Assembly: GCA_964016885.1 (NCBI GenBank)
Contig: OZ024751.1
Span: forward strand, 248,001 to 312,000
From: Eledone cirrhosa
Lineage: Eukaryota
Direction of reading: 5' to 3'
Length of the DNA stretch: 64,000 nucleotides
Position 1 is the stretch's first letter; every line of letters starts with the position of its first letter. The notes under the pieces are model-generated. The model saw only the letters and a program-made list of their open reading frames with translations, ran no database searches and was not told the origin of the DNA. Of this stretch, positions 11,694 through 25,715 are shown piece after piece. A program made the translations under genes and the position numbers.

Positions 11694-12127
11694 ATGGTGG
11701 CTGCCAACTCATTTTCGAGTACGGCCACTACTTTATATCCATGTAGGAGAACCCCTACCGATGCGCTGAACGAATGTGACTTTTTAGTCCAGCCAGCGAC
11801 TTGAAAACTCTGGTACAAACACTACACTTGTGACAATTATTGACACATAGTGCTGGGCCCATGGTACAATGTGATGACAAGTGCAGAGAGATCTCCAGAT
11901 ATAAAGCAATGCCTGTGCCATGAAGCTTTTATAGTGAGCAAAGGCACTGCACAAAGCCAGTCCCACTCTCTTAACCAAGATGATATTTACCAAAAAGAAG
12001 AACAAGTCAACATCATTGGATACCATCAGGGTTGCAGGTGTTATATTAGAGTTTTCCTTCTAGAATTCTGCCTTGACAAAGGCTAAGGGGTCATCTCTCC
12101 CGGGGCTAAGGGGTCATCTCTCCCGGA
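11694..12127 (-). mobile_element. Bipartite RTE-derived non-autonomous retroposon ('R element') copy 1, 5'-truncated
   Basis: Highly similar to copies at 16186, 19707, 25260 and 62185; common 3' end gagttggcagccaccat followed by microsatellite; short duplication at the truncation point. Confidence 0.85.
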
Positions 12128-12403
12128 TATATATGTATATATGTATATATATGTATATGTATACATACATATATATATATACATACATATATATATACAT
12201 ACATACATACATACATATATATACATACATACATACATATATATACATACATACATACATATATGTATATACATACATATATATATATATATACATACAT
12301 ATATATATATACATACATATATATATATACATACATATATATATATACATACATATATACATATACATATATATATATACATATATATATATACATACAT
12401 ATA

Positions 12404-15305
12404 TAACTTTGAAATGTTTTGGCCAGTATTGGCCCAGGCCATGTCTAACTTAATAGCACCACCTGGCGAAGTCTTTCAATTCAGGATTTGGGCACCATGG
12501 CCCATTCGAGAAGAGAATTACTGTTTGCGGAGACATATCCGGGTGTGGGTGGTTTGTCCGGGATTACTTGGAGGAATTTGTCCAAAGACTTCTTGAATTT
12601 TGTGTGGTCAGTTTCTGTTTTGACGTGTCCTGGTGTGATGTTGAAGAGAGCAGGGCCGATTGAGGTGAAATAATTGTGCCGTATTGTTGTTATGAGTTGC
12701 GATTTAGATTTTTGTATGGGACGGATAGCACGGGGCCCAAGCCTTGGGTGTATCTTGAAGGCGATGCCAACATCATTTGGGCAGTGATGATGGAACATTT
12801 TCCACATCATGCAGATAATATAACGCTCACGGCGACGTTGGAGTGAGTAAAGTTTCAGGTTTTCTAGTCGACCCCAGTAGTCAAGGTCTGACATGCCATC
12901 TATCTTTTTCGTGATTGCCCTTTGAGGAGCTTCAAGTTTCATGATACTTTGTTTCGTGTGGGGAGACCACAGTGGACAACAGTATTCAAGGTGTGGTCGG
13001 GCAAAAGTAGAGAAGAGAAGGATAATGGTGTGGGAATCTCTCGACTGGAAGGTTCTGAGGATCCAGGAACACATTCTGCGGGCCATGTCAACTTTGCTGC
13101 TTATATGCGTGGCCCAGCTTATGTTGCTGTCCACGGTTACTCCCAAGTCTCTGATGTTGTTAGATGCCACGAGAGTTTCCCCGGAGGGAAGGGAGTACGG
13201 GAGTTTCAGAGCATCCTCTTTTCCAAAGTGGATCAGTTCGAATTTGTCTTCGTTCAGTAACATGTTGTTCTTTTCCGCCCATTGGGTAACAGCCAGTAGG
13301 TCTGACTGAAGGCTTATCCGGTCATCCACGCCATTGATGACCTTTTGGAGCTTGGAATCATCAGTGAAAATTTTAATGTTGCTGTGTTTGATGATGTCAG
13401 TGATGTCATTAATATAGATGATGAAGAGAAGTGGGCCCAACACAGTGCCTTGTGGGACCCCACTACTGACTTTGGCTGGGCTGGATTTGACTCCTTCAAC
13501 TACAACATGTTGGGTTCTGTTTGACAGGAAGCTCTTGATCCACTGCAGCAGCTTTCCAGTGACACCAATATTGGACAGCTTTCTCAGTAGAATGTTATGA
13601 TCAACTCTGTCAAAGGCCTTGCTGAAATCAAGGTAGATAACATCAGTGTTGGAACCCTCTCCCAAGGCTCTCAAAATGTCATCAAAGTGATGCAGTAGCT
13701 GCGTCAGGCAATCCCTTCCATTACGGAATCCATGCTGGTTGGAGTTCAGCATATTGTTACTCTCAAGGAAGTGGGTCATTCGCGATCTCACCACTCTCTC
13801 AAATACCTTAATGATATGAGAGGTGAGTGAGATTGGACGGTAATTCACGGCAAGGGATTTGTTTCCCTTTTTGAAAACTGGGACAACAGACTGGGATAGA
13901 AGGTTTTCTGGCACATATCCAGCATCCAGTGAGTTCCGCCACAGATTGGCAAGAGGAGATGCAAGTTGGTGTTGACACGCCTTCAAGACACAAGCAGGGA
14001 ACCTATCGGGACCTACTGCTGAATTATGCTTGATTTCCTTTATTGCCGCTAAGACATCAGGGGTGCCAAACGTTATGTCCGATAAGGTGTAATGGGGAGT
14101 AACATCGCCGATACAGCCCAGATCGGCCATATCAGGATTGCTGAAAACAGAGCAGTATTGTTTCTGCAGTATCTCACCCATGGTTTTAGCATTGTCTTGA
14201 AGAGTGCCATTTTCATCAATTCGAGGGCCAACAGTAGAGCCAGTGATTTTGTGTTTTTTTGCAAATGAAAAGAACACTTTGGGATTGAGTTTGATCTTCT
14301 CAATGGCCCAGGCCTCTTCAGCTCTTCTCTGATTGTTGATGAGGGACATTATGTTGTTTTGGAGGTTATGTTTTTTAATCTCTAGTGATGAAATGGCAGT
14401 CAAGTTGATGTGTTGCTGCTGACAGTATTTCAGCTTATTGATTTTTTTGTTCGTTCTCTTAATTTTTCTGATGAGCGTTTTTCTATTTCTAGGGATTCTG
14501 CTCTTAGATTTGTTTATAGTTCTTAATGGGGTGTGTTTAGCACATATGTTTGTAACAGTGTCCACAAATGTCTGCCAGGACTTTTTGATGTTAGTGGGTG
14601 TATGAGTGTGCGTGAAGGACCAGTCGACATGTGCAAGATCATGGCTGATCGCTTCCCAGTTTGCATTGTGGAAATCCATAGCGTCAAACGGATGGACAGG
14701 AGAGATGACATTGGGTTTGTATATTGGGCGGTGGAATCTCAGATCACAGAGAACCATGTCATGATCAGAGAGTAGAGTTTTCTCCACTGCAATATTGTGG
14801 ATATTGTCAGTGTGATTGCTGAAAATTAAGTCTAGGACGTTTTTGTGGCACCTCGTTGGTTCGAGCACCAGTTGGGATAGGAAGAAATCATCCATGAAGT
14901 CAAGAAGCGATTCCACTGCTTCCCTGTCAGAGGTTGAGGCAGAAGAACCTGGTGGCAGGCTGTTTGTGGACCAGTCAACTCCGGGGAGGTTGAAATCCCC
15001 CATCATTAAGATGTTGTCAGGGTGACACTCTTTGATGAAACACTTTATGCTGTTGAGGCATTCCTTGAAGCATGGTACAGGCGTTTGGGGTGGCCTATAG
15101 AGCCCAACTACTATTAGGTTGTTGGTTTGACTGAATACAGTGACTGCTTCACAGTATCCATTAGTGAATATGTTCATAGCCTCTGTTGAGAAAGAATTAT
15201 GGACATAAATGGCAGTCCTGCCCTTTCTTCTGCCAGCGCGATCAGCAGGGATGGCTTTGAAATTTTTCACTTTCACCTCGGCTTACAAGTGGAGGTTACT
15301 GAGAT
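12404..15305 (-). mobile_element. CR1/L2-group non-LTR retrotransposon copy 1 (APE + RT ORF 12481-15276), 5'-truncated
   Basis: APE motifs GDFNLP and SDHD; RT motifs [16 protein letters not shown] and [10 protein letters not shown]; catalytic motif mutated to FTDD; 3' end ttcaaagtta runs into TA microsatellite. Confidence 0.95.
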
Positions 15306-16185
15306 GTATATATATATATACATATATATATATACATACATATATATACATACATATATATACATATATATATATACATACATATATATACATATATATA
15401 TATACATACATATATATACATATATATATATACATACATATATATACATACATATATATACATACATACATATATATACATACATATATATACATACATA
15501 TATATACATACATATATATACATACATACATATACATACATATATATATATATACATACATACATATACATACATATATATATATATACATACATACATA
15601 TACATACATATATATATATATATACATATACATACATATACATACATATATATATATATATACATATACATACATATACATACATATATATATATATATA
15701 CATATACATACATATATATATATATATACATACATACATATACATACATATACATACATACATATACATACATATACATACATACATATACATACATATA
15801 CATACATATATATACATACATATACATACATATATATATATATACATACATACATACATACATACATACATATACATACATATACATACATACATATATA
15901 TACATACATATACATACATATATATATATATACATACATACATACATACATACATATATACATACATATACATACATATATATATACATACATATACATA
16001 CATATACATACATATACATACATATATATATATACATACATATACATACATATACATACATATACATACATATACATACATATACATACATATACATACA
16101 TATACATACATATATATATATATACATACATATACATACATATATATATATATACATACATATATACATACATATATATATATAT

Positions 16186-23900: not shown

Positions 23901-24163
23901 CCCTGCTCTCTTCAACATCACACCAGGACACGTCAAAACAGAAACTGACCACACAAAATTCAAGAAGTCTTTGGACAAATTCCTCCAAGTAATCCCGGAC
24001 AAACCACCCACACCCGGATATGTCTCCGCAAACAGTAATTCTCTTCTCGAATGGGCCATGGTGCCCAAATCCTGAATTGAAAGACTTCGCCAGGTGGTGC
24101 TATTAAGTTAGACATGGCCTGGGCCAATACTGGCCAAAACATTTCAAAGTTATTCAAAGTTAT
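20985..24163 (+). mobile_element. CR1/L2-group LINE copy 3 with uninterrupted APE-RT ORF
   Basis: Frame is open from the element's left edge to TGA at 24075; APE (LTETHL, GGTAIYV, GDFN, SDHD) and RT (FADD); tail (ttcaaagtta)x2. Confidence 0.95.
21055..24075 (+). CDS. LINE ORF2: apurinic-like endonuclease + reverse transcriptase (~1006 aa; no ATG at the start, probably 5'-truncated)
   Basis: ORF track; all canonical EN and RT motifs present with no stops. Confidence 0.88.
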
Positions 24164-25259
24164 ATACATACATACATATATATACATACATATATATATA
24201 CACATACATATATATATACACATACATATATACACATACATATATACACATACATACATATATATACATACATACATATATATATACATATATATATACA
24301 TACATATATATATACATATATATATACATACATATATATATACATATATATATACATACATATATATATACATATATATATACATACATATATATATACA
24401 TATATATATACATACATATATATATACATATATATATACATATATATATACATATATATATACATATATATATACATATATATATACATATATATATACA
24501 TACATATATATATACATATATATATACATATATATATATACATATATATATACATACATATATACATACATATATACATACATATATATATACATACATA
24601 TATATATACATATATATATACATACATATATATATACATATATATATACATACATATATATATACATACATATATATATATATACATACATATATATATA
24701 CATATATATATACATACATATATATATACATATATATATACATACATATATATATACATACATATATATATACATATATATATACATACATATATATATA
24801 CATACATACATATATACATACATATATACATACATATATATATACATACATACAAACATACATACATATATATATACATACATATATATATACATACATA
24901 CATACATACATACATACATACATACATACATACATACATATATACATACATACATATATATATACATATATATACATACATACATATATATATACATACA
25001 TATATACATACATACATATACATACATATATATACATACATACATATATATATACATATATATACATACATACATATATATATACATATATATACATACA
25101 TATATATATACATACATACATATATATACATATATATATATATATATATATACATATATACATACATACATATACATATATATATATATATATATATACA
25201 TATATACATACATACATACATATATATATACATACATATATACATACATAGATATATAT

Positions 25260-25715
25260 ATGGTGGCTGCCAACTCGTTTTCGAGTACGGCCACTACTTT
25301 ATATCCATATAGGAGAACCCCTACCGATGCGCTGAACGAGTGTGACCTTTTAGTCCAGCCAGCGACTTGAAAACTCTGGTACAAACACTACACTTGTGAC
25401 AAATATTGACACATAGTGCTGGGCCCATGTTACCCTGTGACGACAAGTGCAGAGAGATTTCCAGATATAAAGCAATGCCTGTGCCGTGAAGCTTTTATAG
25501 TGAGCAAAGGCACTGCACAAAGCCAGTCCCACTCTCTTAACCAAGATGATATTTACCAAAAAGAAGAACAAGTCAACATCATTGGATACCATCAGGGTTG
25601 CAGGTGTTATATCAGAGTTTTCCTTCTCCTAGAATTCTGCCTTGACAAAGGCTAAGGGGTCATCTCTCCCGGTGATTTTGGATGGCCATTGACTCTTAAG
25701 AGCTCCTTTACCCTT
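25260..25715 (-). mobile_element. R element copy 4, 5'-truncated
   Basis: Same 3' end, different 5' truncation point. Confidence 0.85.

Follow-up and report, generated by a model that had tools for sequence, protein, structure and literature searches.

A bipartite RTE-derived element in Eledone cirrhosa

The stretch analysed here, hereafter the window, comprises 64,000 nt of Eledone cirrhosa DNA (assembly GCA_964016885.1, contig OZ024751.1, positions 248,001 to 312,000 of the forward strand), and all coordinates below refer to it. The window contains copies of a 613-bp non-coding, non-autonomous element, here named R, in which both ends of an RTE long interspersed element (LINE) are fused and which measures 610 bp plus a TAT leader. 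The first 60 nt of R fit the exoribonuclease-resistant RNA (xrRNA) of flavivirus subclass 1a in sequence, including the three-way junction, the junction C, the base-triple letters and two pseudoknots. The anatomy and targeting of R described in an earlier note, which was made from the letters alone, hold in the present analysis, but the xrRNA-like 5′ fold had been overlooked.

Self-comparison of the window reveals four R copies on the minus strand and a fifth on the plus strand. As the earlier note had reported, the four minus-strand copies share one exact 3′ end, ...GAGTTGGCAGCCACCAT, and have four different 5′ ends. Copy 1 (11694..12103, minus strand) is 5′-truncated and spans element positions 198-610. 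A 23-bp tandem duplication is located at its 5′ junction (12081..12126, minus strand), and a short opposite-strand patch adjoins its 5′ end. Copy 2 (16186..16666, minus strand) and copy 4 (25260..25715, minus strand) start at element positions 130 and 155, respectively, and both run to position 610, while copy 5 (62222..62514, plus strand) covers positions 318-610. Copy 3 (19707..20319, minus strand) starts at position 1, is full length with its TAT leader, and belongs to a young subfamily.

The 5′ part of R (19917..20316 in copy 3, minus strand) is derived from an RTE leader. Over its first 400 nt it agrees at 69% (409 columns) with the leader of the RTE LINE found at 58206-62080 of the window, and positions 192-398 match a second RTE family at about 69%. 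The 3′ part (19707..19917, minus strand), corresponding to the last 200 nt or so, consists of a remnant of the final C2H2 zinc finger, a stop codon and a short 3′ untranslated region (UTR) with the end CAGCCACCAT. A terminal stem-loop was read by eye in this UTR, and the junction between the two parts appears to lie near element position 400-415. Both halves therefore have the origins proposed for them earlier, the zinc finger being recognizable in the family majority sequence. The link drawn to the window LINE stands as a relationship between families, but that LINE is a sister of R and not its parent.

R has no endonuclease or reverse transcriptase (RT) frame. It also lacks a tRNA gene, a B box and a poly(A) signal, in agreement with the tRNA-less head described before, and does not fall among tRNA-derived short interspersed elements (SINEs), the Ceph-SINEs included. 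Its identity as a bipartite, non-autonomous derivative of a related RTE, as the earlier note had it, is close to certain.

In copy 5 a short 5′ piece, at about 62185-62235 of the region 62185-62514, is inverted, as in twin priming. The copy lies head to head with the window LINE, and each of the two obeys the strand rule for its own flank.

Abundance and independent insertion of R

The 3.0-Gb assembly, composed of 1,796 contigs, was searched for R. The 18-nt 3′ end has 27,395 exact matches genome-wide (0 for the reversed control), and the 40 best full-length matches are about 99-100% identical. The genome mean is one R per 109 kb, and around the four copies R is enriched about 30-fold over it. 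This enrichment, together with a nearby gap of N and a 14-kb simple repeat, favors local duplication, or mis-assembly of a low-complexity region, as the origin of the four copies. However, the four 5′ ends differ and sequence changes are mostly private. The five window copies differ from one another at 9-17 positions, and each carries 4-10 differences from the family majority, almost always private as claimed before; the shared variants are one common to copies 1-3 and a second common to copies 1-2. The 125 copies compared from chromosome 1 (chr1) have a median divergence of 1.7% from the majority. The nearest chr1 neighbor of each window copy is 0.8-1.7% away, against 2.2-3.7% among the four themselves, and the 610 bp of copy 3 have perfect matches on two other contigs. 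Since the window copies are closer to chr1 copies than to each other, local duplication is rejected, and the chance that it or mis-assembly accounts for the four copies is practically negligible. The independent insertions assumed in the earlier note are thus upheld. Truncation at the 5′ end is found in 58 of 142 chr1 copies.

Strand-specific residence in TATG repeats

The TA/TACA tracts that host the insertions (no strand assigned) extend over 11286..39986, at 11286-11693, 12127-12405, 15307-16185, 16667-17806, 20320-20985, 24164-25259 and 25716-39986. All four minus-strand R copies are antisense to these tracts, in which TACA occurs 32-162 times and TGTA 0-5 times per tract, so the common orientation described earlier is borne out by the counts. 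Four copies out of four on one strand would be expected by chance once in eight cases; the window by itself therefore proves nothing, and the genome counts do.

A total of 142 distinct chr1 copies were taken in chromosome order (60 loci, 80 stretches) and were not selected by their flanks. A tract of at least 20 nt was present on one side of 129 of the 142. Tracts upstream of R are TG-strand in 119 of 129 decidable cases (119:10) and those downstream in 114 of 123 (114:9), with P about 1e-24. Neighboring RTE ends lie on the same strand in 32 cases and on the opposite strand in one. Genome-wide, R ends are followed by RYRTG 12,998 times and by RYACA 307 times, two patterns that differ twofold in degeneracy. 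A CR1-like LINE that also resides in TA repeats served as control, and its 30 loci were divided into 13 TG, 11 CA and 6 undecided; the strand bias of R is thus not common to every LINE in these repeats. The orientation bias, which the earlier note had proposed to test together with flank composition, is strong both in the chr1 sample and across the genome.

Directly after the R end, the chr1 copies show a purine in 136 of 142 cases and then T in 138 of 142, with G at every fourth base. The target site is TAT^RT with a 2-nt AT overlap. Copies whose flank starts with ATAT are still biased (31:7), and recognition beyond the core site is therefore needed. The AT overlap fits an endonuclease preference as well as it fits pairing of read-through RNA, and the tail-target pairing put forward in the earlier note is one of two possible readings.

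Target duplications were listed for 179 R copies and yielded 32 candidates; 11 of them could be read by eye, the others being repeat matches. In these 11 copies, all with an irregular target, the end CCAT abuts a duplication of 6-16 bp (read by eye) and no tail is present; the target reads TAT directly before the duplication in 10 of the 11. The TATG run that the earlier note placed at the 3′ end of R does exist, but it is mostly target rather than tail. Its suggestion that R may seed the microsatellite is weak: no tail appears at the readable junctions, and the tracts on the two sides of R have median lengths of 50 and 52 nt (P=0.96). An upstream tract is missing in 22 of 142 copies and a downstream tract in 6 of 142, and several of the copies without an upstream tract have no duplication. 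This asymmetry speaks against pure targeting and is a faint hint of occasional seeding. The target duplications of R would lengthen the array a little and would not found it.

The xrRNA-like head of R

In copy 3 the xrRNA-like head occupies 20260..20319 (minus strand, as are all parts of it), with the TAT leader at 20319-20317, G3 at 20316 and U4 at 20315. Stem P1 is formed by 20314-20310 with 20271-20267, P2 lies at 20309-20298, and P3 is formed by 20296-20291 with 20279-20274. The junction C is 20297 and the C that serves as partner in the pseudoknot Pk1 is 20273, whereas the pseudoknot Pk2 joins CAUG at 20287-20284 to CAUG at 20263-20260. The predicted fold of copy 3 is the same three-way junction. 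An Rfam scan was run on R alone, as a scan of the whole locus was swamped by microsatellite matches to microRNA models. The best match in copy 3 is RF01415 (flavivirus stem-loop IV), which lies at the exact 5′ end with 25.1 bits and an E value of 0.054.

A search motif for the head found 13,255 matches in the genome and 0 in the control. Among the first 100 matches, 85 are R-type, from which roughly 40% of R copies are estimated to be full length. A close variant of the motif has 10 matches in viral contigs, and five of these are located in the 3′ region of genomes of 10.7-11.1 kb with flavivirus Rfam matches. Of 130 viral and metagenome loci, 46 pass a pairing filter, and many of the others are GC-rich chance matches.

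The head is not confined to R. It also opens sister bipartite families in the genome and stands at the start of the 4-kb window LINE family, 7 of 11 other copies of which begin with it. The motif scan of metagenomes gave at least 120 loci. Among them, heads are followed by sequence like the R leader in L201, L307, L259 and L239; the head of L201 lies upstream of an RTE-type endonuclease frame, and that of L260 is followed by an RTE N-terminus. A 240-bp metagenome repeat family (L220, L216, L252 and related loci) possesses an xrRNA-like head with a long P2, target duplications and AAC/AAT tails.

Fifteen heads were aligned, six from the genome and nine non-octopus rows chosen by eye among the 120 matches listed. 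In this alignment 96.3% of 299 cells pair, against 29-47% in slid controls, and double changes occur at 9 of 20 pairs, a number reached by 0 of 500 shuffles. Pk2, which the motif leaves free, shows double changes at 4 of 4 pairs with 89.8% of its cells paired, and the inner pairs of P2 and P3, likewise free in the motif, covary as well. The junction C is kept in 15 of 15 rows, fixed by the search motif. The letters of the triple and Pk1 (U 15/15, A-U 14/15, G-C 15/15) are read from sequence only and are largely motif-fixed. RNAalifold recovers the three stems unaided. A model derived from this alignment recognizes each of the five flaviviral loci, themselves preselected by the motif, with E values of 1e-6 to 0.005, and in the window it matches only copy 3 and the LINE. 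A pattern for P3 double changes within the genome gave 3 matches only. We conclude that the fold of the R head is very probably real and that it would probably resist nucleases.

Some further loci with the same fold were encountered. Five contigs without flavivirus Rfam matches (L091, L092, L212, L223 and L281) have it with the U-A pair of R, and L212 bears two copies of it about 330 nt apart. A recurring motif in GC-rich, bacterial-looking contigs (L199, L234, L269, L271, L282 and L299) passes or nearly passes the xrRNA pattern and may be coding sequence on the other strand.

The 5′ boundary and the proposed mechanism

The point at which inserted sequence begins was located from phase breaks before G3. 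Among 121 R heads, 36 have a TT break of the alternating repeat between -4 and -3, as do 6 of 28 other heads; other positions give a background of 1-4 and 0-3, respectively. The break lies one position farther from G3 in 14 of the 121, and in the chr1 set it falls at -4/-3 in 19 of 84. In L107 a 29-bp duplication is followed by TGT and then by G3. Taking DNA junctions as a proxy for RNA ends, these positions indicate that the inserted sequence starts 5, sometimes 6, nt before P1. On xrRNAs of mosquito-borne flaviviruses the exonuclease Xrn1 halts 5-6 nt before P1 (PMC5760640).

These data are consistent with the following mechanism, which we favor with moderate confidence: an exonuclease halted at the xrRNA-like fold would trim R RNA out of host transcripts, and an RTE protein would copy it into TATG-strand sites. 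A host transcript would run through an R copy and, after decapping or cleavage, Xrn1 or Xrn2 would degrade it up to the ring-shaped fold, so that a protected RNA beginning with (U)UAUGUCAGG would remain. The RTE LINE protein would bind the 3′ stem-loop and nick TAT^RT in a TATG-strand tract. Reverse transcription would then proceed from the exact R end, helped by the AT overlap and perhaps by read-through AUGU repeats too. Each such insertion would duplicate 6-16 bp of target and leave the array slightly longer.

Several observations weigh against this reading of the head and of R. The RF01415 score is far under the gathering cut-off of 54.5, though three flaviviral xrRNAs, at 27-30 bits, are likewise under it, and RF03547 gave no match in the scan of copy 3. 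The folding energy is no better than that of shuffles (z 0.0; 0.45 for one viral xrRNA). The nine non-octopus rows were selected by eye, three of them (L239, L259 and L290) break part of Pk2, and the invariance of P1, the junction C, the triple letters and Pk1 is circular, being fixed by the search motif. One class-1 paper gives a halt 4 nt before Pk1, one more than the commonest R boundary. For the 240-bp family, six of the seven clean cases have 0-2 letters between the target duplication and G3, which places its boundary 2-4 nt before P1, under the viral halt distance. A search of two RTE families for the autonomous element with near-identical ends that the earlier note had envisaged gave none with R's exact ends. 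Finally, a fixed 5′ boundary is also expected from an internal promoter.

This last point leads to an explanation in which the fold is a real xrRNA-type knot that only stabilizes the RNA, protecting the transcript after decapping, and in which an internal RNA polymerase II (Pol II) promoter sets the 5′ end. The TCAG at the start of R resembles an initiator motif, which would suit such a promoter as the fixed boundary does. Bipartite LINEs are also thought to be Pol II transcripts (PMC5786205). However, the extra G expected from a copied cap is rare, with ATG before G3 in 3 of 121 heads, and the three letters before G3 vary, being TAT in R, TGT in the window LINE family and variable in the 240-bp family. 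The boundary moreover falls at the viral halt distance, and we consider a promoter unlikely to be what defines the R end.

The head could instead be a protein-binding or translation element for the RTE protein that resembles an xrRNA without blocking any nuclease. Its retention by all non-autonomous derivatives seen, the sub-threshold Rfam score and the weakness of Pk2 in 3 of 15 rows would agree with such a role, and R2 RNAs bind their protein through pseudoknots (PMC12222951). On the other hand, many 5′-truncated R copies were inserted without the head, the match extends over the junction C, the triple letters, both pseudoknots and the helix lengths of subclass 1a, and the model built from heads only scores all five of the motif-preselected flaviviral loci. 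We consider such a binding or translation element distinctly unlikely.

An unrecognized self-cleaving ribozyme setting the 5′ end was considered as well, since predictions of hepatitis delta virus (HDV)-like ribozymes exist for several RTE families (PMC5786205) and Perere-3 begins with twister variants (PMC8501958). No Rfam ribozyme was found in R at E<=10, and an HDV descriptor has no match in R and in 4 of 5 relatives. Its sole match (L201) starts at least 49 nt inside the element, and 2 of 60 shuffles match too. The letters at the 5′ end also vary between families, and a ribozyme is highly improbable.

Related RTE LINEs and the candidate helper

The window LINE (58206..62080, minus strand) is a decayed member of a sister family whose copies are about 91% alike and whose frames are broken; its own decayed head lies at 62019-62080. 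The bipartite derivative of this family is a different element of 500 bp. A young RTE family encodes a 1187-aa endonuclease-RT-zinc-finger frame (L361:1772-5332) and has microsatellites inside both UTRs. Its ends differ from those of R, it has a derivative of its own, and its 5′ head was not seen in 20 stretches. By eye, 29 of the last 34 nt of R match the young family and 23 match the window LINE. Since the window family is old with broken frames and the young one matches the R end at 29 of 34 positions, the young family is the better candidate helper.

Contig ends at 19903/19906 in two sequencing runs were considered as a deletion junction and rejected, since they fall at a GATC site, join unrelated sequences and are likely ligation chimeras. 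In a sequencing run filed under another organism code, one contig contains all of R with 7 differences. At least four further short RTE-derived families (L006:2129-2655, L103, L073 and L016) share the head or the CAGCCATCAT end. Such short families nest in each other's flanks, and one of them is only about 190 bp long.

Other elements in the window

Three LINE copies share the region with R. Copy A (12406..15306, minus strand) lies in the same microsatellite and has a 933-aa open frame with endonuclease and RT. Copy B (17807..19696, plus strand) is 5′-truncated and stands tail to tail with R copy 3, and copy C (20986..24163, plus strand) is 99.7% identical to copy B over 1903 bp. They are CR1-like as judged by a sequence motif. 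This young LINE has 3,020 ends genome-wide and a TTCAAAGTTA tandem tail, and two of the window copies keep long open frames.

The stretch 25716-39986 is a 14-kb TA/TACA array with a gap of 200 N and without any R or LINE insertion, whereas the preceding 14 kb hold seven. Recent expansion of the array or assembly noise is possible. An intronless frame of 468 aa for an MFS_5 transporter is located at 7683-9089 (minus strand), with the four R copies upstream on the same strand, and the copies could be co-transcribed with it. The regions 49279-50166, 52070-54959, 44251-45393 and 55637-56877 contain transposon and LINE fragments plus tandem arrays of 42 bp and 49 bp. From their translations, pieces in the window are presumably Mariner-like transposases, fragments of another RT-bearing LINE and possibly a Penelope-like fragment.

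Comparison with known systems

Bipartite non-autonomous RTE LINEs are known, among them RTESINE1/2, WALLSI3, MAR4_MD and Bov-A (Kojima 2018, PMC5786205; PMC7245038). Like these, R joins a 5′ leader to an RTE 3′ end without a small-RNA head or an enzyme frame, and it shows target duplications and 5′ truncations. It differs from them in its strand-specific residence in TA/TATG repeats, in the zinc-finger remnant, in the lack of a tandem tail at readable junctions, and in the xrRNA-like head, which the available parts of PMC5786205 and PMC7245038 do not mention for such elements. In its first third, a 2026 octopus repeat annotation (PMC13282606) counts 893 unclassified families of SINEs as recently active, without describing R. 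The element class of R is ordinary and its head unusual, and R may already have a name in Repbase or Dfam.

Subclass 1a xrRNAs are known from mosquito-borne flaviviruses (RF01415; PMC7527734, PMC5760640, PMC12081666). The R head shares with them a 5-bp P1, a variable P2, a P3 of 4-8 bp, the C between P2 and P3, the U with A-U triple letters, the G-C Pk1 and the L3-S4 Pk2. The genomic boundary of R, 5-6 nt before P1, would fit the viral halt site as well, as far as DNA junctions stand for RNA ends. Unlike the viral structures, which belong to a 3′ UTR, it stands at the very 5′ end of a retroelement encoded in DNA. Two pairs that are C-G in the viral rows are U-A here, and the Rfam score lies under the cut-off.

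Defined 5′ RNA structures are familiar from other non-LTR (non-long terminal repeat) elements, in which HDV-like ribozymes occur in R2 and some RTEs (via PMC5786205) and twister variants in Perere-3 (PMC8501958). The R head is comparable as a 5′ structure that would release R RNA from a transcript shared with the host. In contrast to the ribozyme-headed elements, no ribozyme fold was found in R, and a host exonuclease would make the end.

Simple repeats next to RTE 3′ ends have been described in Lepidoptera, where the repeats of microsatellite-associated RTEs are seen as element-made (Tay et al. 2010, PMC2887409), and for RTE-2_OV of Octopus vulgaris, which has one open reading frame with zinc fingers and a microsatellite in its 3′ UTR (PMC9115989). 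R is similar to both in that its 3′ end adjoins such repeats. In contrast to the RTEs of Tay et al., R has tracts on both sides that are mostly older than the insertion. The young family represented by L361 resembles RTE-2_OV, as far as layout is concerned, in its single frame with zinc fingers and its microsatellite UTR. The R motif is absent from 8 of the 12 supplementary files of PMC9115989, the eight that were searched.

According to a 2021 review, xrRNAs had been characterized only in viruses, and their presence in eukaryotic genomes was an open question (PMC8374639); a 2025 paper adds no host xrRNAs in the part available (PMC12397905). In the literature listings searched, which did not extend to subscription journals, Repbase or Dfam, natural xrRNAs were nowhere reported from a retrotransposon. 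More tentatively, the subclass 1a xrRNA may be an old and widespread 5′-end module of one animal RTE lineage, acting through exonuclease trimming and not as a promoter or ribozyme, and may share ancestry with the flavivirus xrRNA through RNA exchange between retrotransposons and viruses; we regard this broader history as somewhat doubtful.

R is a clean example of an element that targets microsatellites strand-specifically, and the CR1-like LINE, which shows no bias in these repeats, serves as its control. Its head is a single 60-nt xrRNA candidate with more than 13,000 genomic copies, covarying relatives and a predicted halt site. If the proposed trimming is true, it would represent a third route, beside internal promoters and ribozymes, to a defined and protected LINE 5′ end. 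It would also help to explain why RTE derivatives retain their 5′ terminus, and would link a flavivirus RNA structure to retrotransposons.

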